A DNA stretch of 64,000 nucleotides from Pseudomonadota bacterium (lineage in GTDB: Bacteria; Bdellovibrionota; UBA2428): NCBI GenBank assembly GCA_018001635.1, contig JAGNHS010000006.1, positions 2,905 through 66,904 of the forward strand. The letters are read 5' to 3'. Position 1 is the stretch's first letter. Each line of letters starts with the position of its first letter. The notes beneath the pieces were generated by a model. That model had not been told where the DNA came from. It ran no database searches and saw only the letters and a program-made list of their open reading frames with translations. Shown piece by piece: positions 15,464-62,175 of this stretch. A program made the translations under genes and the position numbers.

Positions 15464-16048
15464 CTATGAAAACCCTGTGGAGCTAAGTTTTGTATTGTTT
15501 TCAATAAATTTAATTCTTTCATAAATTTCTCTAGCAGAAACTCTAGAGATTTTTAGATTAACTTCAATTCTATTAAGTTTTAAGTAATCAACGGCATTTT
15601 TAAAGTGACGTCCCCAGGAAATGATTCGACTCCAGGGCCGGGCGTCCCAGAATCTACGTTTTGAATCTTTCAATACAGCCGAATTTCTGTGAGCTCCTAG
15701 AACTTTTCGAGCTATTAGTGAAGATATAATTCTCAAAAACTTTCTAAATTCTCTGCGATTATGGGCTCGAAGGACCAAATGTATATGATTTCCAGCGTTC
15801 GCAATTTGGTAAATATTTACAAAAAAGCGATTGGCTTGCTTTCGTATTTCAGAATCAATTATTTTGCTTTTTAAAAGAAGTGAATACTTCCCTTTAGCTA
15901 AAGTAGATCTCAACACTACATGTTGTGCGTATTTTGAATGAAAAGGTCGTGCCACTTTGGCGTTGTTGCCGTTAAGTAGAGAGCCTCCAAATCCGTCTTT
16001 AGTCCATTTTTGTTCTTCTTTAATTAAAAAAAGCTTACGGTTTCTCAA
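15464..16048 (-). CDS. IS200/Y1-type HUH transposase-like protein (RAYT/REP-associated tyrosine transposase-like), solitary
   Basis: HUH motif in GNHIHLVLRA. Downstream candidate catalytic Tyr lies in AVDYLKLNRIE. Size (194 aa) is typical of RAYT/TnpA-REP proteins. No IS ends or flanking hairpins were seen. Confidence 0.65.
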   Translation of the reverse strand: MRNRKLFLIKEEQKWTKDGFGGSLLNGNNAKVARPFHSKYAQHVVLRSTLAKGKYSLLLKSKIIDSEIRKQANRFFVNIYQIANAGNHIHLVLRAHNRREFRKFLRIISSLIARKVLGAHRNSAVLKDSKRRFWDARPWSRIISWGRHFKNAVDYLKLNRIEVNLKISRVSAREIYERIKFIENNTKLSSTGFS

Positions 16049-23960: not shown

Positions 23961-24057
23961 TTTTCAGAGAAAGTTGAGAAAGGGTTTATTTTCCGATGCG
24001 CGTTTAACCTTTTTACGAAGGCTAAGGGTCTACATCAGGAAATAAGGGGGAAGAGCC

Positions 24058-24439: not shown

Positions 24440-25477
24440 TTACTTTGTAGGTTGATTTTTTAAATGCTCTAAAACTTTATTAATGGAAATGGCTTCGTTT
24501 TCTTTTTCAAGTTTCTTAGTATGACTTTTTTCAGCTAAGTTGTTGAGCAGATAAGCCAGGCGAATTCCAGCTTTAAAGAGTCGCTCTTCAATCACGGGTA
24601 AAACTTTGGCTACGTAGCGTTTATCTAGTGTAGGAATTTTTGATTTTTTGTAATTTGTTTCGTTAATTTTATGAGTGGATGGGTCTACGAATTTGCAATA
24701 AGCACGAAGTTTGGGGTCGGAGATTGCAATTTTGTCGGGATATACAACGGAGTGAAGCGCTTGGGATTCCTCAAACCAAATCTCGGGAGTGGCTGAGGAA
24801 ATTTTGTTGAGTTCTTCTGGGCTAAAAGTCTTTTCAAAGTTTTTTTCTAAATAAGCTCCGAGATATGGATATTGAAAATAACCCATAAGCTTTTTTTCTT
24901 TTTTGGCATTTTCAATGACGAGTTCCTTGAGCTCATCGACCATGGAATTGTCCCAAAGATTATGGAGATTCGTTTCCTTGCTTAGAAAGGAGTTGCGTGC
25001 TCTAAATTTAACGTCGCAAAGGTTGGCGCCACGATCGAGCCCATTGCCAATGTGCAGGGGTTGGTGCACGTCGCCCACTATGTGCACGAGATATCGAAAG
25101 AGCAGGGCTTTGTCGTTGTTGGAGAGGCTATTGTCTAAAAGTAAGTTTGGAACATTTTCAATGATGCTGGCGGCATCCTTTGGAGCGCGCTTTTCTGGGC
25201 TGATATCTTTGAACTTCATGCCTAAGGGAATTTCCAAGTAATGAAAGGGGGCAAAGTCTGCGAAGCGTTCATCAGATCGAACGAGGTCGGGCCAGACCGC
25301 TGATACGGCTAAGGGTTCGCTTCCCATAAAACTATTGATGAATCCTTTGGCTTTTGCTGTGAGGCGAGTTTCGGCTAAATATCCTACGGTAGAGTGACCT
25401 AAATCTCCCCAAGCGAAAATCTTTGCGGGAGCTAAGATTAAAAAACAGAGTGAAAGAATTCGAGTGTTTAGATTCAT
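24440..25477 (-). CDS. Exported S1/P1 family nuclease
   Basis: Signal peptide followed by the mature N-terminus WGDLGHSTVGYLAE. Zinc ligand blocks FHYLEIP, HIVGDVHQPLH and NLHNLWD. Confidence 0.85.
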   Translation of the reverse strand: MNLNTRILSLCFLILAPAKIFAWGDLGHSTVGYLAETRLTAKAKGFINSFMGSEPLAVSAVWPDLVRSDERFADFAPFHYLEIPLGMKFKDISPEKRAPKDAASIIENVPNLLLDNSLSNNDKALLFRYLVHIVGDVHQPLHIGNGLDRGANLCDVKFRARNSFLSKETNLHNLWDNSMVDELKELVIENAKKEKKLMGYFQYPYLGAYLEKNFEKTFSPEELNKISSATPEIWFEESQALHSVVYPDKIAISDPKLRAYCKFVDPSTHKINETNYKKSKIPTLDKRYVAKVLPVIEERLFKAGIRLAYLLNNLAEKSHTKKLEKENEAISINKVLEHLKNQPTK

Positions 25478-25538
25478 TTTTATTGATTATCGATCCGCTT
25501 AATTTTTGTCTATGCCAAGAATCCCTTTGTTCAATGAT

Positions 25539-25730
25539 CTATTGTGCGCGAGGAAACGGGCCTGGCTTATGAGCACCAAAATTTATTAATATCTTTAAAT
25601 TCAAAGACTAGAGCATCTTGGGGTGAGCGATGAGGCAGCGCCTCGAGCTTCAGGGGTCGCCCAAGCCGCTCTAGTTTTTGAATTTAAAGGTATATATAGA
25701 TTTCCAGGCCCGGTTCTTCGCGCACAATAG
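25539..25730. repeat. Long intergenic imperfect palindrome (about 190 bp, composite hairpin)
   Basis: Outer arms are CTATTGTGCGCGAGGAAACGGGCCTGG (25539-25565) and CCAGGCCCGGTTCTTCGCGCACAATAG (25704-25730), with 2 mismatches. Inner arms are CTTTAAATTCAAAGACTAGAGC and GCTCTAGTTTTTGAATTTAAAG. Further pairing occurs near the centre (CTTGGG/CCCAAG). Confidence 0.7.
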
Positions 25731-25748
25731 TTCTAGAGCGGGAGGGGC

Positions 25749-26552: not shown

Positions 26553-26661
26553 AATTAACCTATTTTCTTGGCACCACTGTCAAAATACTTGAGACTCAAG
26601 AATTGACGCCTGAGAGTTTTGACTTTTTAATCGATAGTAGGGGATATCGTTTTCGGGGATC

Positions 26662-26678
26662 GATTAACTAAGTTAATC
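26662..26678. promoter_or_regulatory. Perfect 7-3-7 palindrome upstream of the sigma-54 activator gene (candidate operator)
   Basis: GATTAAC-TAA-GTTAATC lies about 30-45 nt upstream of the candidate start codons. A second palindrome, CTTGAG-A-CTCAAG, is at 26588-26600. Sequence symmetry only. Confidence 0.25.
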
Positions 26679-26706
26679 AAGTAAAACGCCGGTCTCAAGA
26701 ACATCC

Positions 26707-31854: not shown

Positions 31855-31860
31855 GTGAAA

Positions 31861-31997
31861 TAGTTGCAAAGGGCCTGAAATAAATAAATTCTTAGCAACA
31901 ATCCGCAGATCCATACCGTTTTAAGCATTTGTTAAAAGTGTATTCTTGGATCGAGGACGTTGCTAAGAATTTGCTTCTTTCAGGCCCCTTGCAACAA
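31861..31997. repeat. Long intergenic imperfect palindrome (about 137 bp) filling a convergent-gene spacer
   Basis: Left arm is TAGTTGCAAAGGGCCTGAAA...AAATTCTTAGCAAC...GATCCA. Right arm is TGGATC...GTTGCTAAGAATTT...TTTCAGGCCCCTTGCAACAA. Blocks of 19/20 and 14/14 pair. Confidence 0.65.
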
Positions 31998-32002
31998 TTC
32001 GC

Positions 32003-38142: not shown

Positions 38143-39591
38143 TTATTTTGTACCTGCCAGCTTAGGGAGTGAGTCGATTGTGGCTTGTGAAATCGCATAG
38201 CCCCTAGTTTGAGCAAGTCTTGCAGAAAGTGCCGATACGTAGGGCACCATATGTTTTCCAGGGCAATCATGACCATCATTTACGTTGAGGCAAACTCCCG
38301 TTAGGCAATGTCCTTTATCTCTATGAGTTCGTACGTGTTCTATAGGATATTTCATAGCGATTTGATCTTGAAGTTTTGTGAGGAGAGTTACAACTTCTTC
38401 AGGCACGGCATCTTTATCGTAATCTCCTGCAATTGAAACTCCGATAGATCGAGCATTGCAATCAGACGCGTGACAACCGCGATAACCTAATGGAGTTCCT
38501 TCAAAAATTTTCCACTCTCCTCGAGCATCCTTCTTAATCACAAAATGATAACCCAAATCTTTAAAAGGTTTTTGAAAGCGGTGAAACAAACTCATATCGA
38601 CAAGATTGGGTGATTGAGATCCATCGGTGTGGTGAATAACTATTTCATCGTAGGTGAGTTCTTGTTTTCTTTCCTGGAACCATTTTGGGTCCTGAGAGCT
38701 GACAGTCTGAGTGCTATATTTTCTTTTTTTTCCATTCACAGAGGAAAGAGCGCGATACTTTTGTCCATGGGCTTCCTCAGACCACCATTGTGCGCGAGAT
38801 ACAATATTGACATTTGAATTTGGGCTAAATCTTCGAGAGCTCACTTTGCTTTTGGCATTTTTAAGAGCGTTTCTGTCATTTTCAACAAGGGATAGAAATT
38901 TTGAATGCTGATTTCGGTAATCACTACTAGATAAAGAGAGCCATAAACTGTCTTCAACACATTTAAATTTTTTAGAAATATTGGAATTTTTTAAGGCTTT
39001 AATGAGGGCCAATTGAGTCTGCGTGACTTCTTGTTCTAAGGAGTCATTCTTAACAAGGGCTTCTTGGTCCATTCCGTGGGTTTTCATTTTTACAAAAAAT
39101 CCCTTTTGCGAATGACTTAAAAAGAAATGTTCTTGCTTTTGAACGGCATTCAAATAATTTATAAGACTCAAGTTTAAGCTACTAATGGCGGACTTTGTTC
39201 GACTCTTTTGAGGCCCATCGCTGAGCTTAAGTTTGAGTCCTTCGATGAAAGAAATTCTTTCATCAAGGTGATCTTTGTTGATGTATATTGCAAGTTGATC
39301 GAGATCATTGACTAGACTTGAATCAGGACAGGCACCCTTGTTAAAAATAAATTCTATAGGATCTGAATCAGTTTTAATATTATTGTTTGAACTTTGAGGA
39401 GTTTTTGTGTTTTGAATTTCTTCTCTTGAGGTTGCTTTTGTTGTTGTGTTTTTGTTGCTGTTCGCCGGATTCCTGTGAAAAATTCTACTAAAAAAACTAT
39501 CTGTAGCTGAAAAAACTGCTGGTATTGAAATTAAATTCAACAAACCTAAAATAAAAAAAACAAATGAGTACTGAGTTTTTTTCATGCCCAC
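38143..39591 (-). CDS. Exported N-acetylmuramoyl-L-alanine amidase (Amidase_2/PGRP domain) with long N-terminal region
   Basis: Signal peptide is present. The C-terminal amidase_2 blocks are IVIHHTDGS, LGYHFVIKKDARGEWKIFEGTPLGYRGCHA and NARSIGVSIAGDY. Confidence 0.8.
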   Translation of the reverse strand: MGMKKTQYSFVFFILGLLNLISIPAVFSATDSFFSRIFHRNPANSNKNTTTKATSREEIQNTKTPQSSNNNIKTDSDPIEFIFNKGACPDSSLVNDLDQLAIYINKDHLDERISFIEGLKLKLSDGPQKSRTKSAISSLNLSLINYLNAVQKQEHFFLSHSQKGFFVKMKTHGMDQEALVKNDSLEQEVTQTQLALIKALKNSNISKKFKCVEDSLWLSLSSSDYRNQHSKFLSLVENDRNALKNAKSKVSSRRFSPNSNVNIVSRAQWWSEEAHGQKYRALSSVNGKKRKYSTQTVSSQDPKWFQERKQELTYDEIVIHHTDGSQSPNLVDMSLFHRFQKPFKDLGYHFVIKKDARGEWKIFEGTPLGYRGCHASDCNARSIGVSIAGDYDKDAVPEEVVTLLTKLQDQIAMKYPIEHVRTHRDKGHCLTGVCLNVNDGHDCPGKHMVPYVSALSARLAQTRGYAISQATIDSLPKLAGTK

Positions 39592-39759: not shown

Positions 39760-42700
39760 TTATTTTTTCTTCTTATTCTCTGTTTTGAATAGTTTTCTAA
39801 GAAGTTTTACAACATTCACTTTTTCTTCTTCCTCGGAGATGAGTTGATAACCTACAAAGTTATCCATTTTAGCTTTCCCGATGAGGAATTGTCCAAGGGC
39901 ATCTTCTTCGCTGTAAGCTGTAAAGTTTATAGTTCCAAAGAATCGTGAATTGCCCATAACTTTTTCAATATTAGATTGAGCTGAATCGCTAAGATCTGCA
40001 ATGAGGTCGCCAAACATGAATGTGAAACGATCGTATTCAGAATCTGGAAATTTGGCTTGCACCTCTAAGGCTTTAGCCGCGCCCACTCCATAATCTGTGC
40101 CTCCACCCAGTTGGACTTTATAGAAGTCATTTTCATGGGCTTCGTCAAAATCATAAGCCACTCCGTCAAAAGCCACGTAGGTAAAAACGATGTTTTTATA
40201 TTTGTGTTTTAAAAGTGAGCGAATGTTGAAAATGATTTCCTTCATTTTCTCTACATATCCCATCATACTTCCTGATAGGTCAGAGATAATAGTGACATGG
40301 GCAGAGATGTCGGGGTCAGGTTGCTGCCGATGATTTTTAGAATGAATGTTTTTCTTCTGTAAAAAGTCCACGCCAACTTCGAAGGGGTCAAGCTCGGAGG
40401 TATCCTCGCCCTCTTCTTCTCGAAGGTTGATCACGCCGAGTCCGAGTTTAATGGCATCGCGAACAATTTTCTTAGCCACATAGGGTTTACGGTCTAAAGG
40501 TTGAGAGCCAACAAATATTTTACGCATTTGTTCGGTTTGTCCCTTGAGTGGTCTTAGGTTGGGTAACTCAACTTCATCCTTTATGAGGCTTTGATAAAGC
40601 TCTAATGGAATTTCAATATAAGAGGGGTCGCCACCGCCGCAGCCTTGACCATTTGAGGGTTTGCCTGTGTCACTATCCTCATCGCTACCTTCGTCGGGTT
40701 CTCCGTCGCCTTCACCATCACCGTCATTTCCATCGCCAGGCTGGTTTGAGGATTTTTCAACATAGTATTCCTTGTCCTTAAGACCTTGGGGCTGCAAAAG
40801 AAGTCCATCATCAGTTACAAAGGGATTGTTGTCTAAATCATTCACTTTTGAGAGTAATCTTTTTATTCCGTTTTGCGCACGTCGATCGAAGACTATTCCG
40901 CCAACTTCAGGCAGCACTTTGAGGCTATAGCCGCTGCCAGTTCGAGTGAGGCCACCATTGTTGGCCGCTTTTGAGAATGCCGCTAAAAATCTTTCTGCAA
41001 CTTTTTGGTGATATCGATTGAGTGCTTTGAGAATTCCGTGAGGAACTTCATTGAGTGCCATAGAACCTACAACATCGTTGATGTTTTTATAAATACTACC
41101 TAGAGGATCAATTTCAATTCCTTCTTTGTTTTTGAGAGTGCTGACAATTCCCTTTGGAACTTCAGTTTGATCGATATGGTAATCTATTAAAAATTCTCTT
41201 AAATTTTTAAATAGATGACCGTAAATTTCTTTGTCTACTGTAGATTTTTCTGCAGCCTCAGGAGTCCATTCTCTAAAGCTAGGCGTTTGATGAATTTCAA
41301 TTCCTTCTTCCCAAGAAGAATTACTATCCAATATTTCCATTTTTTTAAGAGTTGAGACGTTTATTTGTCCTTCAGGGTTGACTCTTATTTTCGCTCTAGC
41401 CAAGCGATATCCAATGACTTTCATTTTAGGTTTGAAACTAAACCAGTCCCACGTCACTTCTTTTATAACATCGATGATAAGTGTGGCTTCTAATTCAACA
41501 GTTTTCCTAAGTATTTTGGCCCAACTGAGTAGAGTAGGGGCTACAGTTTTTCTATTGATGGGTGTGAAGTAACCCATTTCATTACTCACAGATAATTTCG
41601 CAACATCATCTGTCTGATTGTGCAAATTATTCCAGACAACACGCGGATAGGCGTAGGAGAGGTTCCAGTCCTGTTGCACTTGATATCGAATACGTTCAGG
41701 ATCGTGAGTGATGACCTGATAGAGGGTGCCGTCCATATAATCTTGAGGAAGAGGAGCCCCTTGTTGAGCAAGTTGGAATTTTTCTTCGTTGCTGAATTTT
41801 TTAACTAGGGCTAGGTGCCTGTTTTTGATCCATTGATCAGTCAGCTTAGAAAAAATAAACATGACATTATTGCCAAGGTTTGGATTGTTTATGATTTCTC
41901 TAGCATAATTTATAAATTTTTGATCGCGCTCCATTCCTTCCAATTTAATGTTTTCAGGGCGCCTATTGAATTCTTCTCTAATTTCTCTCCAAATTTCGAG
42001 TCCGAGAAAATAAGGATTTGTGAGTGAGGGTCGCGCTACTCTTCCAGCGAGCATCCCAATTTCAGCAGCGTCACCAAAACTTCGTGCATAGTCGGGGTGA
42101 TGTGAGAAAATAATTTCCTCAACGAGCATGGCAAAACCTTCATTGAGTAACTTTGTGTTAACGGCACCAGGAATAAAGCGATTCATTTTTTCAAATTTTT
42201 TCGCCATTTCTAATTTCCAAGGTGCGATATCGCTTGGTAGTTCACTAACAAAGGCTTGAAGAAGGCTTACCGTTTGCTTTCCTGAACTCTGACTAGTCTG
42301 AACAAGGCCATCGCGCCATTGATTGAATCCTATGGGTCTGTCAGCCTTTAAGTCTTTAGGTTCTACATAGGCACCGCTCCAAACATCTTGTGCCATTTCA
42401 AGCGAAAGTAAATGGAAAAACCAATCCTCTACTTCTCGAGGATCTTCATATTTTCCAATATCTGTCATTAGTTCATCGAGCTCAACAGAAACTCCAACGC
42501 GATCATGGGAAGTTTTGTGTTTAAAGTAAGAATTCACATGGAAGAAATTATGGCCATAGACGTGAGCCAATATGTTCATGAATAATATGGGACTTAAGTT
42601 GCTCAAGTAATAGCTATGCTGTGTGCTGTGGCCCGAGAGTACAAATTCTAAAACCCCTTGAAGATTTCGTGCTTGATTGAAAATTGCGGCCCCGTCACTC

Positions 42701-42969
42701 CAGCTGCCGACAGGGTAACGATTCACCGCCGCCATTCCAGCCACTGAAGACGGATTGAGTAATTCTACAATATGTTTTTTTATGCCATTTAGAAGACCTA
42801 ATTTATCGGCGATGTCATGAACTTCAGCTAAACGTTTATGATATTCCGCTGCGTCAGGTTGGTTGTGCGAGTCCGCTATTAAGTGCTCTTGGCAGCTGAA
42901 AGAGTGTTGGGCAAAGATGAAGCTAAGGATACTGAGAAACTTTAGAGTGTTTAATCTAATAAAGCTCAT
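39760..42969 (-). CDS. Fusion protein: N-terminal SpoVR/YcgB-like domain plus C-terminal YeaH/YhbH (DUF444, vWA-like) domain, with signal-peptide-like N-terminus
   Basis: SpoVR block GVLEFVLSGHSTQHSYYLSNLSPILFMNILAHVYGHNFFHVNSYF (about 42540-42660). A Gly/Asp-rich linker (GDGNDGDGEGDGEPDEGSDEDSD) follows. DUF444 blocks are YIEIPLELYQSLIKDEVELPNL, PDPDISAHVTIISDLSGSM and QLGGGTDY. N-terminus is MSFIRLNTLKFLSILSFIFAQHS. Confidence 0.85.
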   Translation of the reverse strand: MSFIRLNTLKFLSILSFIFAQHSFSCQEHLIADSHNQPDAAEYHKRLAEVHDIADKLGLLNGIKKHIVELLNPSSVAGMAAVNRYPVGSWSDGAAIFNQARNLQGVLEFVLSGHSTQHSYYLSNLSPILFMNILAHVYGHNFFHVNSYFKHKTSHDRVGVSVELDELMTDIGKYEDPREVEDWFFHLLSLEMAQDVWSGAYVEPKDLKADRPIGFNQWRDGLVQTSQSSGKQTVSLLQAFVSELPSDIAPWKLEMAKKFEKMNRFIPGAVNTKLLNEGFAMLVEEIIFSHHPDYARSFGDAAEIGMLAGRVARPSLTNPYFLGLEIWREIREEFNRRPENIKLEGMERDQKFINYAREIINNPNLGNNVMFIFSKLTDQWIKNRHLALVKKFSNEEKFQLAQQGAPLPQDYMDGTLYQVITHDPERIRYQVQQDWNLSYAYPRVVWNNLHNQTDDVAKLSVSNEMGYFTPINRKTVAPTLLSWAKILRKTVELEATLIIDVIKEVTWDWFSFKPKMKVIGYRLARAKIRVNPEGQINVSTLKKMEILDSNSSWEEGIEIHQTPSFREWTPEAAEKSTVDKEIYGHLFKNLREFLIDYHIDQTEVPKGIVSTLKNKEGIEIDPLGSIYKNINDVVGSMALNEVPHGILKALNRYHQKVAERFLAAFSKAANNGGLTRTGSGYSLKVLPEVGGIVFDRRAQNGIKRLLSKVNDLDNNPFVTDDGLLLQPQGLKDKEYYVEKSSNQPGDGNDGDGEGDGEPDEGSDEDSDTGKPSNGQGCGGGDPSYIEIPLELYQSLIKDEVELPNLRPLKGQTEQMRKIFVGSQPLDRKPYVAKKIVRDAIKLGLGVINLREEEGEDTSELDPFEVGVDFLQKKNIHSKNHRQQPDPDISAHVTIISDLSGSMMGYVEKMKEIIFNIRSLLKHKYKNIVFTYVAFDGVAYDFDEAHENDFYKVQLGGGTDYGVGAAKALEVQAKFPDSEYDRFTFMFGDLIADLSDSAQSNIEKVMGNSRFFGTINFTAYSEEDALGQFLIGKAKMDNFVGYQLISEEEEKVNVVKLLRKLFKTENKKKK

Positions 42970-45900
42970 TTTTTCTCCTCAGGAATCAATAAATATTCGC
43001 AACGATCGCCGAATCCAGCATGATTTCTTTCCAATTCCGGAACCTTATCTCTTATGAGATCATTACCTTCTAAAAGTTGTGTGACGTATTCAACAGTAAG
43101 AGGTGAGAGTGGAGATTCTTCAGTTTTAAAGGCAAATTCAGCGAATTCAGCTCGGGTGCTGAGCGCGGGTTCGTCTATGATTTCTTCGAGCATTTTCATC
43201 ATGAAAACGTTGGCATTGTCCCAGGGTAGATTGGCAATGGCTTGGTCTATAGCCCAAAGAAAAATAATCGCTAAATCACTTGAGCTCAAATTTCTGTGGA
43301 GTCCTTTTTGTACTTCTTTGAGTTTGGGATTTAAAAAACCCTGATTAGAGACAAACATTTGAAAGAGGTCTCTTATTTTGTCTGTAGTGCTTGCAAATTC
43401 TTCACGCACTTCTTTTGAGTTTTTCATGGAATCAAGCCAAGCTTGAGAGTTGGATTCTTGAAATCCATTGGATTGATAAAATTTGTAAAACAAATTTTTC
43501 ATGAGCGATTCAATGTTGATAATTAAGCGGCTTATGTATTCACGTTGTCCTTCTTGTTCCTGAATTGAGCCTTTAATTTTTAAAAAATCATCTAGGGAAT
43601 CGCTCTCAAGAACGCTAGACGCGGGAAGTTTGAAAGGAATAACGGGTTTTGAATTATGATGAGCATCCATGAGGTCTTGGAATTCGGAAAGGAAACCAGA
43701 GTGGTTATTTATTTTTAATCGAACTGGGGATAGATCCAAATTCCAAAATCTTAATTCTGGACGATTTCTTAAGTTGAGATAGACTCCCGTGATGAGCGGT
43801 TTGAGGTAGTACATTTCATTTTGAAGACTCGCCCTAAAAAACTTATGATTTTGGATTGAGTTTATGAAATGATTATAAAAATTGATTCTAAAAGAGTTAG
43901 AATTAAATTCTGCGAAATCAAGTCTTCCGCGAAGGTTGTCAAAGGTGACTGGTTTTACAACAACATGTTTCTTAATTTGGTTTCTTAATGTGGTTGAATT
44001 TATAGTGGAACCACCTTCTTCCACTTGATGATCATCATTGTACCATTCATCAACATTCCAATCGTCTTTGAGGTCTTTGCTGTCATGGGTATCGCTTTTA
44101 GAGCTAGTCACATAATAGAGTGGAGCGGGGGCTAGAGAGTCATCTTTAGCTTCTGTGAATAGAGAGTTAGTAACGGGCATTAAAAAGTTTCGCGCGTGAG
44201 CTTTGGGGAAAATTTGTGCAATTTCAGAAAGAATATGTGGATTCACTAAAATCAGTTTGTTTGAAAGAGTTAATTCTTGGAGACTTCGAGCTCTGATTTT
44301 TGAAATCAAACCCGAGGCTTTGGCCTCACGTGGAAAATCACCAAAGTTAATGAGATCAGAAAAACGAGCTAAGATGGAGGGCTCATATTGAGCACCTTCA
44401 ACTTGTGAAAGTGCTGCAATGATTTGTGATTCAATAGAACTAGCATCATCGATATATTGATCTCTAATTTCACGATTGGATGCAGGGTTGATGGTTACAA
44501 ATAAAGAGATATTTCTAACAGGAATTTCGATGGTCATTTTATCTTCAAGACGAGAGACTCTGACCAAGTTGTTGTTCAGTAAGTTTTGGATATAAGACAT
44601 AACTCGACTGAGAACGTTGGCGTTCTTAGCTTTGTGAAGATCGTCAATAAGTATGAAACCTCGGTAGCCGAGAGGAAGTGATAAGAAATTGTCTAAGTGT
44701 TTCAGTGCGTCTTCAACATATAAACTTTTTCCAGTGGCTTCTTCTTTTTTATCTACCAAATCTTCTACTTTTAGGAAAAAGGCTTGAGCATTTTCATCTA
44801 AAGGTCTGTTGAAGTCGTAAACTTTTATATCGAGTAATTGGATGAGCTTCTCAAAGAAAAAAGTTTTTCCTAAACTTGTTTCACCGAAAAATACGGCTGA
44901 TGAGGGAATTTGCTTTGAACTATCGGACCCTTGAGTTTGCGAAAGAATAAGCCTGAAAATTCTTTCTTTGAGATCCAGTTGACCAGCATATCCTAGTTTT
45001 GTGAGATCCACTGCGGCTCGAGCGGTGTCTTTAATTTTATGAAGAACGTCTTCGGGTTCAAGGGATTTATAATTTAAGGGGATGGGGAAAACTTTGGCTA
45101 AAAATCTTTCTACATAGTTTTCGTCAATCACTCGACTTCTTCTGAGTTTATGGTCGTCGACTAATGATTTTCTAAAAATGGAATAGGAGCGTACAAAGGC
45201 TTCGATGGGTTCTTGATTGAGTGAATTGGCAACAGCTTCAATTCGATTGGCTAAAAATTTGGTGATGTTCAAAAACGGAGCGCTGTTTCTTTCGGCGCCA
45301 GATTCGTTTCCATTGTATCGAAATGAGTAATTCAGAGTTCTAATGTCTTCTCGATAGAATAAATTTCTCAAAATGTTAGAGCGGTGCTCTACGCTTGGAT
45401 ATTCAAGTCGAACTATTTCAAAATCTTTTTGAAGATCCATAAAATGCGACTCAAGGCCTAAATCTTTTTCTAAATCTTCGATTTGTTCAGGAGTGGCTAC
45501 AATAATTTCTGAAACGCTTGGGGTAGCTTCATCTCTTAAGCGCCATTGCTTTTTTAATTTAGGTTGGATTCTTCTACCTTCGGAGGCCAACCACCACATG
45601 ATGTGAGGGAAAATTGTATTGGGTTTGTCTATGTCGCTACGAGAAGAACTGTTTCCATCTTTGTCACTGCCTTCGTTGGGGCTGTTGGCGCTCGATTGAG
45701 CCTCGGAAGCCGTTTCAGCTAATAGCTCAGTTTTTTTCATGGCCGCAGGATCGCTAATTCTAAAAGGTTTGATGTCGCTTTTTTCTCCAACTAGTGGACG
45801 TTCATTGCGTAAAAGGTCGCTCGCATCTGCTAAAAGAACAACACTATTTTCTTGGCTGAGTCTTCTCATGGCGTCTAGATTGCCAAAGATTTCTTCTTGA

Positions 45901-48900
45901 TGAACTTTTCCACCTTGTGGATATCTGAATATTGAAAGATGGGGATTTCGAAAATTCCAGGAAGTGTTTAAATTTGGATTTCCATTAGTATCTCTTTCTA
46001 GGGCCACGTTGTAGCGACTCGACCAATGAGTCATTAAAAAGCGAAGCATGAGTTTTTTGATGTTTTCAGGGACAACTATGATTCTATGTTTAGGTTTTTC
46101 AGGTTTTTTAGAGAGCTCACTCAAAATGGGTCTTAAATTTGGGAAAACTTGAAGATCGTCTGAGGTGAGCGCACTCACCGACATTCTTCTGATGTCAGGA
46201 GTGGATCTCGGAGTGTTCGGAGGCCAGTTGTACCATTGTGAGGTTAAGAATCTTGCATCGATTTCAAATAGACCTTTGTCTACTAAGCCTGCTTTGAATT
46301 CATGAGGATGAGCTTCTTGAAGTTTTAAAAGTTTTTTAGGAGTTGTTAGAACAACAGTTGTCACAGATTTGAAGGAGTCTGATGGAGAGCTTAAATCTTT
46401 AAGGTGTCGTCCTTTTCCTTCCGTGGCTAAGAGAAAAAGTCCAGAAAGTTTATGGGGCGAAGAGGGATCGTAAATGTGATCAGACGAGGTTGAGCGTGCT
46501 GATTCGGAGAAGCTTTCTTCATCGAGTTCATCGCCACCTTGGTTTGTTTCTACAACTTCTGGTTCATCTTCTTCATGCTTGTGTTTAGTTCCTTTGTTTC
46601 TGCCGTCGTTCTCTTCTTCATCCTCTTCGTCATCTTCTGTCTTTTTGTTTGAAGCTTTAGACTCGGGATCATTATTAGCGCTTACGGTTTCGATTCCCAT
46701 TTGTCTTTCAGAGTCGCTTGAGGCGTAGTCGAGTATGCTAAACGAGGATGCACTGTCACTATCTTCAGAGTTTTTGCCGTCTGTTTCTAATATGAAAGTT
46801 TGTAAAAGCTCGTCGGAGCCTGCAAATAGTACGTTTTGTGTTGTTGATTCAGAGGCAAGTTTTAATTCCTTGCGCATTTCCCGAGCATCGGATTGATGGT
46901 CAAAGAAGTAGAGTTCAAAATCGTTTCCACCGGGTTTCCATTTAAGGGACCAACCTGTTTTTTTGTTATCGAGTTTAAGGAGCATGAGGTTATAAAAGTT
47001 GGCGTAGTCTTCGTCAGACACTACAAGGAAAGTTTTTTTACCTTTTTTAGAAGGATCTACGACTAAGGAATCTAGGTACTCGTCTAAGAGTGGGTAAAGT
47101 GGTCCTTTCCCCCCAGGTCCGAAATTTAAATCTTTATAAGTTTTAGCTTGCTCAGCTTCATTTCCGTCGAGTGCTTTGGAAAGTGTTGAATTAATTGAGC
47201 GTAATCCAGTGGAGGATGAAATGCTCCATCGACTTCCTATCCAAAATAAGCGACCCTCTTTTTCGTTTTCCTGAACAATTCTTTCTTTAAGGCGAATATT
47301 AATATTTTCTTTTGAGGGAACAACAAGTTTAGAGACGTAATTAAAACATCTCATTTTATATTTTGCAGAAAAATAATCTTCATTGGGAGTGTCAACCCAA
47401 TACAGGGCACCATTGCCATCGGGAAGCACTCGGTCGCTAATGCGATTGGCGGTCACATAACTTTTTGTAAGCCAACCTGAGGAATCTGGAATGTTGTTGG
47501 CTGTGAATTCAATTTTTCCAGCTTTGAGTTGAGATTGAATTTCGTATCCTAGCAGATACACGCCACCCGTGTTCTGACGAGTCCTTTTGAGAAAGAGCAT
47601 AACGTAAATGCTGTTAGCGTGCTTTCTTAAACCTTTAAAAACTCTTACACCCTCAATTTGAGAGAATGAAAATGGAAGCTCTCGTGTGGCGAAGAAAGTG
47701 TTCTTTATGTTTTCTCCAACTCGACCCTCGTAATTAAAAAGGGTCACAAGATTGAATTTTCCTTCTAAATTAGGTTGCTGAGAGTTGTTTGGAAGCATTC
47801 CAAACAAATGGATTTTGAAGGCTTCCAATTGCTTCGAAGATTCGCTGAGTGGAAGATGAATGTCAGTGGTGTATAGAACAGCACGAATGGAATCTTTGGA
47901 AATGGATGTTCTTGAATTTTTCTTTGTCTTTGTTTTTGAGCTATTGGAATAGATAAGCTGTCCGGGAATGAATGATGAATCATCTTTGTTTAAATGCGAT
48001 GTTGAATCAGCAGGTGTTTCGTGTCGATCTGCGGAATGCGTATCCTCAAGATAGACTCCGGTTTTTTCATTGAGTTGTGATTGTTTGTCGTTATTGAATT
48101 CTCGATAAACAACATGGGGGCTCATGATTACGGGAAACTCGTTTTTAGCTTGAAGAAATACTGTTTTCTTTTTGGGGTCGCTTTCAGAGACGTTAAGATA
48201 GGCGGTGACTCGCAGTCCTCCGGGATTTTTTTGAGAATCACTTCTATAGGTTTTGGGCCCCACGCGAGGAGTGCTGTTGTCGAAAACTAAACCAAGGTTT
48301 TCCACATTCTTGATTCGTAATTCTAGTTCTTCTTTGCTGAAACTGTACGTATTCGATATAACCTGCATGTCTTTAACGCTGACGTGACCCATGGATTCTT
48401 CAAGTTCAATCGCGAAAGTTCCCCCTCCAGGATAATATTGAGTTTTTCCTGATAAAATTAAATAATGTTTTTTGTAAACCGCACCAGAAATGAGTTCGTC
48501 ATCAGGGGTGTTGTCTGAAAATCCAAAAATGGGTGCTGATTTTCTTTTTTCGATTTTAGGTTGTGGAAGATCAAAGGACTCTAGAATTATAACGTTGTCG
48601 TTGTTGAAAGGGTCGAATTTGAGTTTGGTAAATTGTTCTTGAACTTCGACAACCTGAATACTTCTGTTTCTGGATTTTAGTCTTAACAGAATGCTTTTAT
48701 CCAATGAGAATAAAACCTCAACAGAGGAATCGTTTGAGAGAGATCGAGTTAAAAACTTTTTATTGTCTTGATCCCAGCTGAGTCTTCCTTTTTGGGGTGG
48801 AGTACCTTCATATTGAAAGGAGAGCCCATCTCCTAAGGGTTCAAAGAATTGAGTGACTCCCGAAATGGCCATGTTAGAAACTTGAGGTTCGGGTCTTTTC

Positions 48901-49844
48901 TCGAGGACATCCACTAAGGGAGGATTAGTGAGCACACTCAGTTTAAGAGATTTTCCAGAATTAATATCGATGTCTCTATATCGACTTGTAAAAGTTTTTT
49001 TATCGATTTTGGAATTGGGGTCGAGATAATCCAATAAAAGCTTCACTTTTTTTAACCAAATATCAACGAGAGGGTGCTCTTTGTCGTTTTTCCATTTTTC
49101 ATAAACTGTTTTTAGAAGATAGGGGGAGTATGCTTTGTCGGGTGAATAGTCGGCAAAAAGTCTTATGAGTCCTTGGTCTGTGGGGTGAAATCTATAATCG
49201 AGGAGCACCGGTTCAGATATTTTAAATTCACCTGTTTCGATGCCTCCGTTTTTAACAATAGCAAAAGTGATTCCGTCAGAACCCATTTGAGGAATGCCTT
49301 GCTTAACTGAGATGATATACATACACGAGTTGTCTACAGGGTATTGTACAATCGTGATGTCTTTGGGGTCCTTTATGTTTTCAAGATAAATTTTACGTTT
49401 CGTGAGAGGATCGATGATTGGGACGGGAGTGGCAAATTTGTTGGGTATTTTTTGGGATTCATTAGCGCCAATAATGAGTGAGCTGGCTGCTTTTTTTTCT
49501 GAAGTGTTTTTGTTAACGATATAAATTTGTCCATCGAGAATGACTAAGGCTTCTTGATTTCCTTGTTGAGTGACAGGAGCTAAGAGTACAAAAGTTTCAG
49601 CGGATCGCTTATTCACGCCAAGCACTTCTTTTTGAATCAGTGGAGTAGAGTTTTCAGCTCCAGTATTAAAAAAATAAATTCCCTTTTTTTTGCCATTGAG
49701 TTCAGTGTTGAATACCAACTCGTATAAGGCTCTTGCATTATGAGGATGTGGAAAAATGAAAGACCCCTCGTCGGCCGCGCGTAAGGCTCCACTTTGTCCG
49801 ACAAGTAGGGCGGCAAGGGCAATATGTTTGAGGAGGTGTCTCAT
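42966..49844 (-). CDS. Giant (2292 aa) protein: signal peptide, unassigned N-terminal region of about 880 aa, acidic linker, and Clp/Hsp100-like AAA+ modules (last one with intact Walker A/B)
   Basis: Uninterrupted 6.9-kb ORF with signal peptide MRHLLKHIALAALLVGQSGALRA|AD. Walker A is FFGETSLGKTFFFE (about 44863-44886) and Walker B is GFILIDDLHKA (about 44641-44665), followed by NISLFVTINPAS. An upstream Clp D1-like block is IIVATPEQIEDLEKDL...FEIVRLEYPSVEHRSNILRNLF. ATGA overlap with the downstream gene. Confidence 0.8.
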   Translation of the reverse strand: MRHLLKHIALAALLVGQSGALRAADEGSFIFPHPHNARALYELVFNTELNGKKKGIYFFNTGAENSTPLIQKEVLGVNKRSAETFVLLAPVTQQGNQEALVILDGQIYIVNKNTSEKKAASSLIIGANESQKIPNKFATPVPIIDPLTKRKIYLENIKDPKDITIVQYPVDNSCMYIISVKQGIPQMGSDGITFAIVKNGGIETGEFKISEPVLLDYRFHPTDQGLIRLFADYSPDKAYSPYLLKTVYEKWKNDKEHPLVDIWLKKVKLLLDYLDPNSKIDKKTFTSRYRDIDINSGKSLKLSVLTNPPLVDVLEKRPEPQVSNMAISGVTQFFEPLGDGLSFQYEGTPPQKGRLSWDQDNKKFLTRSLSNDSSVEVLFSLDKSILLRLKSRNRSIQVVEVQEQFTKLKFDPFNNDNVIILESFDLPQPKIEKRKSAPIFGFSDNTPDDELISGAVYKKHYLILSGKTQYYPGGGTFAIELEESMGHVSVKDMQVISNTYSFSKEELELRIKNVENLGLVFDNSTPRVGPKTYRSDSQKNPGGLRVTAYLNVSESDPKKKTVFLQAKNEFPVIMSPHVVYREFNNDKQSQLNEKTGVYLEDTHSADRHETPADSTSHLNKDDSSFIPGQLIYSNSSKTKTKKNSRTSISKDSIRAVLYTTDIHLPLSESSKQLEAFKIHLFGMLPNNSQQPNLEGKFNLVTLFNYEGRVGENIKNTFFATRELPFSFSQIEGVRVFKGLRKHANSIYVMLFLKRTRQNTGGVYLLGYEIQSQLKAGKIEFTANNIPDSSGWLTKSYVTANRISDRVLPDGNGALYWVDTPNEDYFSAKYKMRCFNYVSKLVVPSKENINIRLKERIVQENEKEGRLFWIGSRWSISSSTGLRSINSTLSKALDGNEAEQAKTYKDLNFGPGGKGPLYPLLDEYLDSLVVDPSKKGKKTFLVVSDEDYANFYNLMLLKLDNKKTGWSLKWKPGGNDFELYFFDHQSDAREMRKELKLASESTTQNVLFAGSDELLQTFILETDGKNSEDSDSASSFSILDYASSDSERQMGIETVSANNDPESKASNKKTEDDEEDEEENDGRNKGTKHKHEEDEPEVVETNQGGDELDEESFSESARSTSSDHIYDPSSPHKLSGLFLLATEGKGRHLKDLSSPSDSFKSVTTVVLTTPKKLLKLQEAHPHEFKAGLVDKGLFEIDARFLTSQWYNWPPNTPRSTPDIRRMSVSALTSDDLQVFPNLRPILSELSKKPEKPKHRIIVVPENIKKLMLRFLMTHWSSRYNVALERDTNGNPNLNTSWNFRNPHLSIFRYPQGGKVHQEEIFGNLDAMRRLSQENSVVLLADASDLLRNERPLVGEKSDIKPFRISDPAAMKKTELLAETASEAQSSANSPNEGSDKDGNSSSRSDIDKPNTIFPHIMWWLASEGRRIQPKLKKQWRLRDEATPSVSEIIVATPEQIEDLEKDLGLESHFMDLQKDFEIVRLEYPSVEHRSNILRNLFYREDIRTLNYSFRYNGNESGAERNSAPFLNITKFLANRIEAVANSLNQEPIEAFVRSYSIFRKSLVDDHKLRRSRVIDENYVERFLAKVFPIPLNYKSLEPEDVLHKIKDTARAAVDLTKLGYAGQLDLKERIFRLILSQTQGSDSSKQIPSSAVFFGETSLGKTFFFEKLIQLLDIKVYDFNRPLDENAQAFFLKVEDLVDKKEEATGKSLYVEDALKHLDNFLSLPLGYRGFILIDDLHKAKNANVLSRVMSYIQNLLNNNLVRVSRLEDKMTIEIPVRNISLFVTINPASNREIRDQYIDDASSIESQIIAALSQVEGAQYEPSILARFSDLINFGDFPREAKASGLISKIRARSLQELTLSNKLILVNPHILSEIAQIFPKAHARNFLMPVTNSLFTEAKDDSLAPAPLYYVTSSKSDTHDSKDLKDDWNVDEWYNDDHQVEEGGSTINSTTLRNQIKKHVVVKPVTFDNLRGRLDFAEFNSNSFRINFYNHFINSIQNHKFFRASLQNEMYYLKPLITGVYLNLRNRPELRFWNLDLSPVRLKINNHSGFLSEFQDLMDAHHNSKPVIPFKLPASSVLESDSLDDFLKIKGSIQEQEGQREYISRLIINIESLMKNLFYKFYQSNGFQESNSQAWLDSMKNSKEVREEFASTTDKIRDLFQMFVSNQGFLNPKLKEVQKGLHRNLSSSDLAIIFLWAIDQAIANLPWDNANVFMMKMLEEIIDEPALSTRAEFAEFAFKTEESPLSPLTVEYVTQLLEGNDLIRDKVPELERNHAGFGDRCEYLLIPEEKK

Positions 49845-49862
49845 TTTCCAGCTTTACTCAGT

Positions 49863-52463
49863 TTATTTTTTGTCGTGCTTGTTGACGTGCTCCACTAAGA
49901 ATCGAAGCGCTTGCACGAAAGATCTCTCGTTGTATCCGTATCTTTCCAAGTTGCTGAGTATCTTTTGCCCAGCCGTTTGAGTTTCAGTGGCCACGGATCT
50001 TCCTTGCATGAAATCAAGGAGGCTTTGGTAGCTGTTAGTTTTTAAGTTCTGACTCATCAACCAATCAGAAATAGCTTTTTCAAGCTTAATCCACATGGGG
50101 AGGGGTGATCCGTCAGTATTATGAAGCGCTAAATTGGCAACATAAGCTTGGAGATCTGGGGGATTAAGATCGTCGCCCCAGCGTTTTCTAAAGGCCTTTT
50201 TAATTTCAGTGAGTCTATCAAAATTGATGGCAGTAGGTATGTCGCCTTTTGATTTAGTGTGGTGTGTGGCTTTAGAGTCTTGCGCTAAGTGTGAAATTTC
50301 CGAAGTGACTGCATCGTAAATACTGCGCACTTTATTGGTGTCGTTAGCAATAATCGAGTTCACATCGTTCATGAGCTTAGGAAGTATGAGCTCTGCTGCA
50401 ATTCTCTCGGCGAGTTCGAGCCATTTAGCGTATTCAGGGCGTTCCTTTTGAAATTGGTTTTCGTGAAGGGTGAGTCTAAAGGCGTCTTTTATTTCTACAG
50501 GAGTTAAAGTGTTTGAATGTCCGGGAGATTGTGCGAGTTCAAGGGCCTTTTTAAAGACCACTTCAATATCGCGTTGTCCAATTCCATTATCGCCTTCATT
50601 GAGAAGAGCTTCCTTTGAGAATTCCGTTAAAGCCGCTAGAACTTCTTGATTCTCAACAACTTCATCTCCTGTGATAATTCGAAGACGGTCAATTGGGTCG
50701 GTGAACCATCTTAGATCGGGACGTGTGATACGAGTGAGAATGTTGGCGTCTTTGAGTTTATCGATATTTGTTTCAAGCGAAGAGCCTGCGGCAATGCATC
50801 CCAAGAAATATAGCGAATAGGGTGAAATATCGACAAAGGAACTTTTGCTAGCGCTGATTTCAGCTGGCGAATCAATTTTAACTCTTACGGCGTAATGACC
50901 CTCAGGGCCTGAAATATTTCCATTGCTGTCGGGTTCTGCATAAATTTCCTTGATGAGGGGTGAATTTGAGCTTTCGTTTAGTGTGGCGAGATTTTTGTGT
51001 TCTGTTGAATCCAATTTGCGTGCACTAAAGTTATTGGGTTTGAGAGTGAGTAAAAGTGCAAGCTCTCTCCATCTTGGATGGAGGAGGTTTTTCATGGCAA
51101 TATGTTGTAAGCGAGATAGAAGAGCGTCGGTGTCCATGCGTTTTTTGGAATCTGCAATGGAACTATAGTTTGCAGAAAACACATTAAAGGTGTCCATCGC
51201 TAAAGCGGGGGTGTCTGAACCTTTGGCGACGCCTTCTTGTAATACAGAAAGTAGGAAGTGGAGAACTACGGGGTCGTTTCGAGTAACGTCGTCCCAAATG
51301 ATCATGGAGCCATCGTTTTGAGAGAGGGGTCCGTTAAAATGGAAGCCGAGAGTGTTATTGGCGCCTTTAATTCTTGCGGCTACGTTGGCAGTTCCAATTA
51401 AAGAAGAGGTGTCGGGGGCTTCTTCCATAGGACGAATAATGGGATCGCGATTGGAGGCAAGGCTGATGTCTTTTCTTGCAATACCCACAAAATTTTCAAA
51501 TATGGCTAAATAGTCAGCTACGGTGAGAGAAGTTGCTTTTGTGGCTTTTAAAATATGTTTTTTATAAAAAGGAATGAGAAATTCTCTTAGGATATCTTCT
51601 GCATGAGAATCGCGGGCGACAGCTTGGCCAGGATTTCTTTCGTAGAAATCACCAATGTCGAAACCTAACATTTTAGAGGCGGTGGCACCTAGAGTTTTTG
51701 CGTAAGCCACTTTGAGTTCGGTGGGAAGTAGGCTGAAGGGACTTCTTTGAAGGCTTGTAACATTAAGGCGATCGCTATCTTTGACTAAGAATTGATCGAG
51801 TCTTTGACCTAATGAAGGATCAGTTTGTTTTATCATGTCCAAATTTTTCCAAAAATAGGTGTATTCCTTGAATAGAGGATCTCGAACTGAGAGGTGGGCT
51901 AGGGCATATCGAATGACGTATTCGAGAACTGTTTTTCCAGTTCCTGGAGGTCCCTTTAAAAGTGGTCCTTTACTTCCGCGCATACCTTGTGCGGCTTCGG
52001 AGATGATTTTTGCCAAGCTCGAGCTAGCTTCATATTGGCCTACGAGAAAAAGTCCGCCAGTTGCGGGCAAGGCATCATGATAGACTTTGGGAACATTATA
52101 ATATTGGTGCTTGTAGACGGGGTCTAAAACTCGGCGATATCCAAAATTATTCAAGACCGCTAATTGTTTTTGATCAGCATTCATTAAAAGTAAGGGATGC
52201 TCTTTTATGAGATCGGGTAATTTTGAAAAAGGATACTCTACGGCGTATTCTTCGGTGCCGGCAATAGCTAGTTGAGCCACTGTTTCGGGCACTAAAAGAG
52301 TTGAGCATAATTTTGGATCAACATGAAAACTTTTAGGAGTGCTAGTTGTTGATTTAGCCGCGGATGCTTTTTTGCTTTCTGCTGCAAATGAAAAATTTTC
52401 TAAGCTCATTAAAAAAATAACGACGTGTGTAATTTTTAGAATTGTAGGTAGGCTTTTTCTCAT
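49863..52463 (-). CDS. PrkA/YeaG-like AAA+ protein (866 aa) with signal-peptide-like N-terminus
   Basis: PrkA-type N-terminal AAA blocks are SLAKIISEAAQGMRGSKGPLLKGPPGTGKT (Walker A about 51932-51955) and DGSMIIWDDVTRNDPVVLHFLLSVLQEGVAKGSDTPALAMDTFNVFSANYSS. A long helical C-terminal region follows. N-terminus is MRKSLPTILKITHVVIFLMSLENFSFA|AE. Confidence 0.75.
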   Translation of the reverse strand: MRKSLPTILKITHVVIFLMSLENFSFAAESKKASAAKSTTSTPKSFHVDPKLCSTLLVPETVAQLAIAGTEEYAVEYPFSKLPDLIKEHPLLLMNADQKQLAVLNNFGYRRVLDPVYKHQYYNVPKVYHDALPATGGLFLVGQYEASSSLAKIISEAAQGMRGSKGPLLKGPPGTGKTVLEYVIRYALAHLSVRDPLFKEYTYFWKNLDMIKQTDPSLGQRLDQFLVKDSDRLNVTSLQRSPFSLLPTELKVAYAKTLGATASKMLGFDIGDFYERNPGQAVARDSHAEDILREFLIPFYKKHILKATKATSLTVADYLAIFENFVGIARKDISLASNRDPIIRPMEEAPDTSSLIGTANVAARIKGANNTLGFHFNGPLSQNDGSMIIWDDVTRNDPVVLHFLLSVLQEGVAKGSDTPALAMDTFNVFSANYSSIADSKKRMDTDALLSRLQHIAMKNLLHPRWRELALLLTLKPNNFSARKLDSTEHKNLATLNESSNSPLIKEIYAEPDSNGNISGPEGHYAVRVKIDSPAEISASKSSFVDISPYSLYFLGCIAAGSSLETNIDKLKDANILTRITRPDLRWFTDPIDRLRIITGDEVVENQEVLAALTEFSKEALLNEGDNGIGQRDIEVVFKKALELAQSPGHSNTLTPVEIKDAFRLTLHENQFQKERPEYAKWLELAERIAAELILPKLMNDVNSIIANDTNKVRSIYDAVTSEISHLAQDSKATHHTKSKGDIPTAINFDRLTEIKKAFRKRWGDDLNPPDLQAYVANLALHNTDGSPLPMWIKLEKAISDWLMSQNLKTNSYQSLLDFMQGRSVATETQTAGQKILSNLERYGYNERSFVQALRFLVEHVNKHDKK

Positions 52464-61766: not shown

Positions 61767-61897
61767 TATTAATGCCTATCGGTAGCCATACTTGCTGTCT
61801 CAATGGCGGAATTAAATTAAATTTATTAGAGGAAAATCCGCGTTAATGTCTTGAGCTTAATAGGAATAATTAATTAATCTTAACTAAGTATTTTTAC

Positions 61898-62040
61898 GGA
61901 TTCTACTGTGCGACGTAAAGAGTGGGGCATGTGTGGGACCTGATCAATTGAGAGGGAGAGTCGTGGCGAGGGCTCGAAGGAGATCTGCATTTTTCCTAAG
62001 CATTTTGCTTCAAACACTCTTAACGTCGCACAGTAGATTC
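61898..62040. repeat. Intergenic element bounded by 26-27-bp inverted repeats (about 143 bp)
   Basis: Left arm is GGATTCTACTGTGCGACGTAAAGAGTG (61898-61924). Right arm is CACTCTTAACGTCGCACAGTAGATTC (62015-62040). They show 1-2 mismatches. The roughly 90-bp interior is not obviously self-complementary. A partial direct copy, GATTCTGTGCGA, follows immediately (62036-62047). Confidence 0.7.
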
Positions 62041-62175
62041 TGTGCGATCTTGATGGATTGGGGTTGAATTATCATGTGATTACATGTGTTTACCGTGAGT
62101 TCATAATCTAATTGTTATCTTGGGTTGAGCGACTTTAGATTGAGACTCTATCTTTAGTCTGCTAAGGCTTTGTCC

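Follow-up and report, generated by a model that had tools for sequence, protein, structure and literature searches.

A MITE-like palindromic repeat between the LOG and S1/P1 nuclease genes of an uncultured Bacteriovoracaceae lineage

Several kinds of short bacterial repeat end in inverted arms. Mobile insertion cassettes, described in Bacillus cereus, are bounded by terminal inverted repeats (TIRs) and carry a passenger gene without a transposase. REP/RAYT systems have a conserved GTAG/CTAC tetranucleotide at the REP end. MITEs are elements below 500 bp that lack a transposase gene, have TIRs of about 4–30 bp and occur as dispersed copies bordered by direct repeats (PMC10969869). The direct repeats fade in older copies (PMC10969869). 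QMITE2 of Coxiella burnetii has TIRs of 23–29 bp, a core of 113–145 bp and a fold of about -113 (PMC10969869). In Correia elements RNase III cuts at the TIRs, and ERIC alters decay by RNase E (PMC10969869). REPIN hairpins are maintained through compensatory changes (PMC3116915).

Here we describe a palindromic element between a LOG-family gene and an S1/P1 nuclease gene, identified in a window of 64 kb (the whole stretch of DNA that was analysed). It is probably one copy of a non-coding, non-autonomous element of the MITE kind, about 190 bp long, with 27-bp TIRs and a modular palindromic interior; a transposase acting in trans would have mobilised it, and it may now have a role in an operon mRNA. 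The family is a new, MITE-like palindromic one, found so far only in one uncultured Bacteriovoracaceae lineage; we found no description of such repeats in the literature on Bdellovibrio and Bacteriovoracaceae. The assignment accounts for a structure that stands out from its otherwise ordinary chromosomal surroundings, and it brings in a repeat family not described before from a little-studied lineage of predatory bacteria. As an element within a two-gene operon, it is an ordinary kind of bacterial genome feature and will not surprise a specialist.

Architecture and fold of the element

The element is built from nested arms around a GC-rich core and is flanked on both sides by minus-strand genes:

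25539–25730, no strand assigned: whole palindromic element, with termini CTATTGTGCG...CGCACAATAG; the ends are set where the similarity of paralogous copies stops
25539–25565, plus strand: left outer arm (TIR), CTATTGTGCGCGAGGAAACGGGCCTGG, 27 nt with 2 mismatches to the right arm
25566–25578, plus strand: 13-nt one-sided bulge, on the left side only, unpaired and fast-evolving
25579–25614, plus strand: left middle and inner arm, containing the 22-nt inner arm 25593–25614
25615–25667, plus strand: GC-rich asymmetric core of about 53 nt, with the small hairpin GAGGC-AGC-GCCTC at 25632–25644
25668–25703, plus strand: right inner and middle arm, containing the 22-nt inner arm 25668–25689
25704–25730, plus strand: right outer arm (TIR), ending in CACAATAG
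24440–25477, minus strand: S1/P1 nuclease gene with signal peptide (Pfam), the downstream neighbour, with about 60 nt between the element and its start codon
25749–26552, minus strand: LOG-family gene (Lysine_decarbox/SLOG; Pfam), the upstream neighbour, with 18 nt between its stop codon and the element

From terminus to terminus the element measures 192 bp, and weak pairing reaches 25536–25733. A preliminary description of this locus had given its geometry as 27-nt outer arms with two mismatches, an asymmetric internal bulge, 22-nt inner arms with one mismatch and further pairing in the core, and all of this was borne out. It had also placed the element between two genes of the same strand, and Pfam matches confirm a LOG-family gene and an S1/P1 nuclease gene, both on the minus strand. 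When mismatches are allowed, an inverted-repeat search extends the outer arms to 30 nt at 90% complementarity and the inner arms to 44 nt at 84%. The ORF listing of the window has no ORF of 50 aa or more contained within the element.

Both strands, which the same description had proposed to fold, are far more stable than shuffled sequence. The predicted RNA fold of the plus strand has an energy of -113.2 kcal/mol (z = -12.4) and that of the minus strand -94.5 kcal/mol (z = -9.4); in each case none of 200 shuffles folded as well.

Copies in relatives and the LOG–S1/P1 locus

The element is single-copy in the window. We scanned one genome per species for 185,579 species with an exact 22-mer of the arm, CTATTGTGCGCGARGAAMCGGG. 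It was found in seven stretches, all in one uncultured Bacteriovoracaceae metagenome-assembled genome (MAG), CAZSSP01, which shares 92% DNA identity with the window across 7 kb around the element. The seven loci come from exact-word matching and were counted in this relative, so the number is a lower bound. The preliminary description had inferred a mobile repeat and had set against it a single copy without related sequences that was also conserved in position across species; the scan agrees with the former.

One of the seven stretches, L009, is the orthologous LOG/S1-P1 locus, and the element is in the same place there and 90% identical. At unrelated loci of CAZSSP01, full-length copies are 87% (L007), 85% (L010), 83% (L008) and 79% (L006) identical to the window copy. 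L011 consists of the two outer arms alone, a 58-nt hairpin of -32 kcal/mol as DNA. In L012 the arms stand in the correct inverted orientation around about 380 bp with an 85-aa ORF that has a lipoprotein-type signal sequence. The left outer arm, the most conserved block of the family, is thus also present in both the arms-only and the cargo copy. The L006 copy (931–1123) has its asymmetric core the other way round with respect to the bulge and the termini, an arrangement that recombination within the element, from one inner arm to the other, would produce.

The element also lies between LOG and S1/P1 in a third assembly, JGI contig L002. Its presence at the same site in L002 and L009, independently assembled sequences of relatives, means that it is not an assembly artefact. 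We give practically no credence to a chance inverted repeat or a misassembly: palindromes can generally arise through misassembly, and nothing else speaks for it. The fold is unmatched among the shuffles, the site is the same in three independent assemblies, and in CAZSSP01 the element sits inside contigs of 221 kb and 355 kb.

Searches of other collections gave no further copies. A 20-mer of the arm had 13 matches in a metagenome scan, all by chance, in DNA of 58–69% GC and none with a second arm. A scan of viral contigs gave 0 matches, and a blastn search of plasmids and phages was likewise negative. Within the window, 13 nt at 38785 resemble the arm; they are part of an amidase gene and probably a chance match (E = 0.06–0.6).

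Palindromes of this kind break short-read assemblies, can mislead gene callers and can serve as strain markers. Logan contig L001 breaks 72 nt into the element. Logan contig L026 stops 1 nt past a stop codon, where the MAG copy begins, which hints that the 92%-identical heptosyltransferase locus of SRR12901028 also has a copy. At this heptosyltransferase locus, beside the L010 copy, no comparison of a filled with an empty site was recovered between close relatives: the close relative's contig stops at the stop codon, and the downstream genes of a distant relative differ.

An orthologous-site comparison, which the preliminary description had proposed, is available at the LOG–S1/P1 locus, where the element is present in L009 and L002 and absent in L004/L005. 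The latter come from a distant relative (S1/P1 49% identical) that keeps the gene order of sigma-54 activator, LOG and S1/P1, with DksA nearby. In this relative the end of LOG overlaps the beginning of S1/P1, stop and start falling on one coordinate, which leaves no room for the element. By this comparison of sequences, the element is an insertion into a conserved LOG–S1/P1 gene pair, and the overlapping pair looks ancestral. L003, from an 84% relative, has no hairpin and has a different gene upstream of S1/P1. LOG and S1/P1 probably form a two-gene operon with the element inside and, by analogy, co-transcribed with both genes.

The surroundings of the locus vary in how strongly they are conserved between the window and CAZSSP01. 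At the first and second codon positions, 6.5% differ in the S1/P1 nuclease gene and 0.2% in the LOG gene, so the two genes that flank the element are under very different constraint. The divergent spacer between LOG and the sigma-54 activator gene (26553–26706) has 0 differences in 154 nt, against 25% at four-fold sites, and the spacer 23961–24057 has 1 difference in 97 nt. Such conservation suggests dense regulatory sequence, or unannotated functional sequence, in both spacers. At L009 7019–7602 the MAG has an extra 584 bp, missing at about 28706 of the window, with a small minus-strand gene for a secreted protein. Its neighbours are the sigma-54 activator gene and the gene next to that one, and its junctions are clean, without hairpin arms.

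Elsewhere in the window, a minus-strand cluster at 39760–52463 encodes a PrkA-like protein (866 aa), a 2292-aa ORF without a Pfam match and a 1069-aa protein with matches to both SpoVR and DUF444. PrkA-type clusters usually encode SpoVR and DUF444 as separate proteins.

Constraint on the hairpin and candidate mobilisers

Covariation was assessed in an alignment of seven copies (A2) with a consensus structure of 77 pairs, in which 94.4% of alignment cells are paired. Compensatory double changes were found at 12 of the 77 pairs; shuffles gave 6.6 ± 1.6, none of 500 reaching 12, and slid registers gave 0–2. In the middle and inner arms the changes fall at alignment columns 57/160, 59/158, 72/145 and 73/144, and the small hairpin of the core covaries from A-U to G-C at columns 100/110.

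The copy at the LOG–S1/P1 locus can be compared directly between the window and its CAZSSP01 orthologue. At four-fold sites of the five surrounding genes, 25% differ (179/708), whereas the element outside the bulge differs at 7% of positions (13/185; Fisher p = 6e-9 against four-fold sites). The bulge differs at 46% (6/13; Fisher p = 4e-4 against the rest of the element). Eight of the 19 differences are at unpaired positions, two make up one compensatory pair, three turn G-U into G-C, three are mismatch repairs in one copy and three break pairs. The contrast of 7% with 25% indicates that purifying selection has acted on the stems of this fixed copy ever since the window organism and CAZSSP01 split. 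Purifying selection on a fixed copy is unexpected for a purely selfish insertion and suggests some host-level role.

These stems, evolving about 3.6 times slower than four-fold sites and with covarying pairs, are also what one would expect if the sequence were primarily a functional structure of the host that had been duplicated (a structured RNA, a stabiliser of mRNA ends or a signal resembling a terminator) and no transposable element. We consider this reading very unlikely. Several copies do start no more than 18 nt from a stop codon, with the upstream ORF of L008 terminating within the element's terminus, and other long hairpins are similarly placed (E2, E3 and L010 5965–6225, described below). 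However, the copies, all of them intergenic, lie in tandem, convergent and divergent contexts and face both ways relative to the flanking genes, and those of L006 and L011 are in divergent promoter regions. Fold energy shows no strand preference either: three independent loci favour one orientation and two the other, so that no strand is consistently more stable across copies.

Rfam had 0 matches in the window at the gathering score. Relaxed scoring gave two miRNA-hairpin matches of 20–22 bits against cut-offs of 70–107, which is chance level. A terminator consensus scan found no site at the element, and the stem is not followed by a U-tract (minus strand, ATCATTGAAC; plus strand, TTCTAGAGCG). 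The arms-only and cargo variants are a better match to transposon ends than to an RNA gene. With no Rfam match, no strand preference and mixed gene contexts, structured RNA, which the preliminary description had offered as an option, is unlikely as the primary identity.

A mobile element of the MITE kind should have conserved ends, and the arm consensus, ATTGTGCGCGAAGAAACGGGCCTG, is nearly invariant in 16 arms. Paralogues are similar up to ATTGTGCG at the left end and CACAATAG at the right, where the similarity breaks off abruptly. The right end is identical at six of the seven independent loci, that of L008 having diverged, and on the left the dinucleotide preceding ATTGTG is variable (CT, CA, TG, TC). 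The terminal tetranucleotides of the family are CTAT...ATAG, with the left variants CAAT, TGAT and TCAT, and the GTAG/CTAC termini that the preliminary description had in mind are not found. No target-site duplication is consistent across the seven independent loci (nine sequences, of which the window, L002 and L009 are one locus). We rejected an IS630-style TA or CTAG target, which fits the window, L008, L006 and E3 but fails at L007, L010, L011 and L012.

No transposase gene with these termini was found in the approximately 115 kb examined (the window and the relatives' loci), and Pfam searches of 45 window ORFs found no DDE transposase and only a weak Y1 match. The missing duplication and the asymmetric ends make a Y1 or single-strand mechanism possible, though no positive test favours it. 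The orientation of the element relative to GC skew, the same at 5 of 7 loci, is not significant.

Such a mechanism would apply to a REPIN-like element that is transferred as one folded strand of DNA by a RayT/IS200-type Y1 (HUH) tyrosine transposase, for which ORF 15464–16048 is a possible gene. We think this unlikely. The near-constant right end with variable left bases, the lack of a duplication and the compensatory changes that keep the hairpin, as in REPINs (PMC3116915), would fit, and the candidate ORF has some of the expected features. Its translation reads an HIH motif and a later DY-L-LN motif, and many of its homologues carry PF01797 and are named RayT by JGI. It matches NCBIfam REP_Tyr_transpos at E = 1.2e-6 but with 28.4 bits against a cut-off of 80, and Pfam Y1_Tnp with 19.1 bits against 23. 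Because both scores are under the curated cut-offs, it is a distant Y1 relative and not a member by score.

No family arm matches within 9 kb of this ORF, and there are no convincing flanking hairpins around it or its homologues in L030, L032 and L033, where inverted repeats are at chance level. Without flanking repeats it looks like a stand-alone, possibly domesticated, Y1 gene. What had been described as a RAYT-like HUH gene is therefore a weak Y1/RayT relative, below the family cut-offs and unflanked by arms. The ORF is 100% identical to the NCBI MAG protein KA116_02395 (labelled Proteobacteria bacterium) and has relatives of 76–79% identity in four other samples.

The arms themselves differ from REP sequences. 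Folded singly they reach -3.2 and -0.5 kcal/mol (z = -1.2 and +0.9), no better than shuffles, and thus are not REP palindromes. Three of the four REPIN properties tested are lacking (REP units, GTAG/CTAC ends and a flanking RAYT gene), and the fourth, compensatory change, is present. Of the earlier proposal of a MITE- or REPIN-like mobile hairpin, the mobile part is supported, with multiple copies at unrelated loci and absence from L004/L005, while the REPIN/RAYT specifics are not.

Two other long palindromes in the window bear on the ends of the element:

61896–62043, between divergent genes: hairpin E3, with 29-nt arms of 90% complementarity and termini CTACTGTGCGACG...CGTCGCACAGTAG
31859–31999, between convergent genes for a YunG-domain protein and an M28 peptidase: hairpin E2, which nearly fills the spacer, with 41-nt arms of 88% complementarity

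Each is unique in the window. The terminal 10 nt of E3 agree at 9 of 10 positions with the termini of the element (CTAYTGTGCG), and the interior is unrelated. With up to one mismatch, CTAYTGTGCGMS occurs six times in the window against 0.63 expected, and four of the six are the termini of the element and E3. A shared end signal is plausible from this sequence agreement. The resemblance to the palindrome at 61898 that had been noted before thus holds for the terminal 10 nt and does not extend further, since the family profiles miss E3. As diverged family members, E2 and E3 were both rejected: neither is detected by blastn-short or by nhmmer profiles of the whole element or the arms. E3 alone has CTAC...GTAG ends, and it is unrelated to the family. 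GATTCT stands on both sides of E3 and could be a direct repeat, and the arms of E2 (ATTGTTGCAAGGGGCCTGAAAG) loosely recall ATTGT...GGGCCTG of the element's arms.

At L010 5965–6225, CAZSSP01 has a 260-bp near-perfect composite hairpin of unrelated sequence, with -155 kcal/mol as RNA, that begins at the upstream ORF's stop codon. Several families of such palindromes seem to be present in the lineage. One could go further and propose an undescribed REPIN-like system, in which several palindrome families of 140–260 bp (the element, E3 and perhaps E2) would share a CTAYTGTGCG-like end and integrate without duplicating the target. A very divergent RayT-like Y1 enzyme, not flanked by these palindromes, would copy them in the form of folded single strands of DNA, and selection at the level of the host would then keep them vertically as RNA or DNA structures at the ends of genes. 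We regard this more elaborate proposal as quite improbable.

Proposed role and comparison with known systems

Under the preferred reading, that of a MITE-like element mobilised in trans, a transposase encoded elsewhere would recognise the conserved termini ATTGTGCGCG...CGCGCACAATAG. The element would have moved into the short LOG–S1/P1 operon spacer before the window organism, the L002 organism and CAZSSP01 diverged. By analogy with other repeats, it would be transcribed within the LOG–S1/P1 mRNA and form a long, imperfectly paired double-stranded stem of about 95 bp. The stem may serve as a substrate of RNase III or RNase E or as a barrier to exonucleases, as Correia and ERIC elements suggest, and in this way could set the relative mRNA levels or stability of the LOG and S1/P1 halves. 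As an element that separates the members of a conserved gene pair and whose stems evolve under purifying selection, the copy is a reasonable test case for the possible recruitment of a fixed MITE to the control of an operon mRNA.

Intrinsic terminators and SPRITE-like repeats are similar in having a strong hairpin just past a stop codon. Unlike the stem of an intrinsic terminator, that of the element is about 95 bp long instead of 5–20 bp and has no U-tract, and the consensus scan misses it. Mobile insertion cassettes resemble only L012, in which arms surround a small lipoprotein ORF without a transposase; the window copy has no ORF.

The element is roughly twice the usual length of a REPIN. 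In contrast to REPINs, its arms are not REP palindromes and the GTAG/CTAC signature is absent from the family. A RayT-like gene exists in its genome but is not flanked by repeats. Common to both are a long hairpin with compensatory changes (PMC3116915), the lack of a target duplication and vertical persistence at an orthologous site.

Set beside the definition of MITEs, the element is below 500 bp, has no transposase gene, has TIRs whose 27 bp fall within the range of about 4–30 bp, and is dispersed over seven loci in CAZSSP01. Direct repeats were not found at seven loci; since they fade with age, their absence weakens membership without excluding it. The closest likeness is to the palindromic MITEs, namely QMITE2, Correia of Neisseria and the enterobacterial ERIC/IRU and 168-bp RU-2/YPAL. 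The element differs from these in lacking flanking direct repeats, in that no parent IS was found in the window or the examined loci, and in an interior that is GC-rich at the core and not AT-rich throughout. Its known copy number is small, and it has no sequence similarity in the plasmid, phage, viral and metagenome collections searched. It has in common with them a length of about 190 bp, a non-coding sequence and an intergenic location, together with likely co-transcription with neighbouring genes. Palindromic MITEs also occur as size variants and truncated simple palindromes, as does the family in its arms-only copy L011, and with QMITE2 the element is alike in size, arm length and fold energy.
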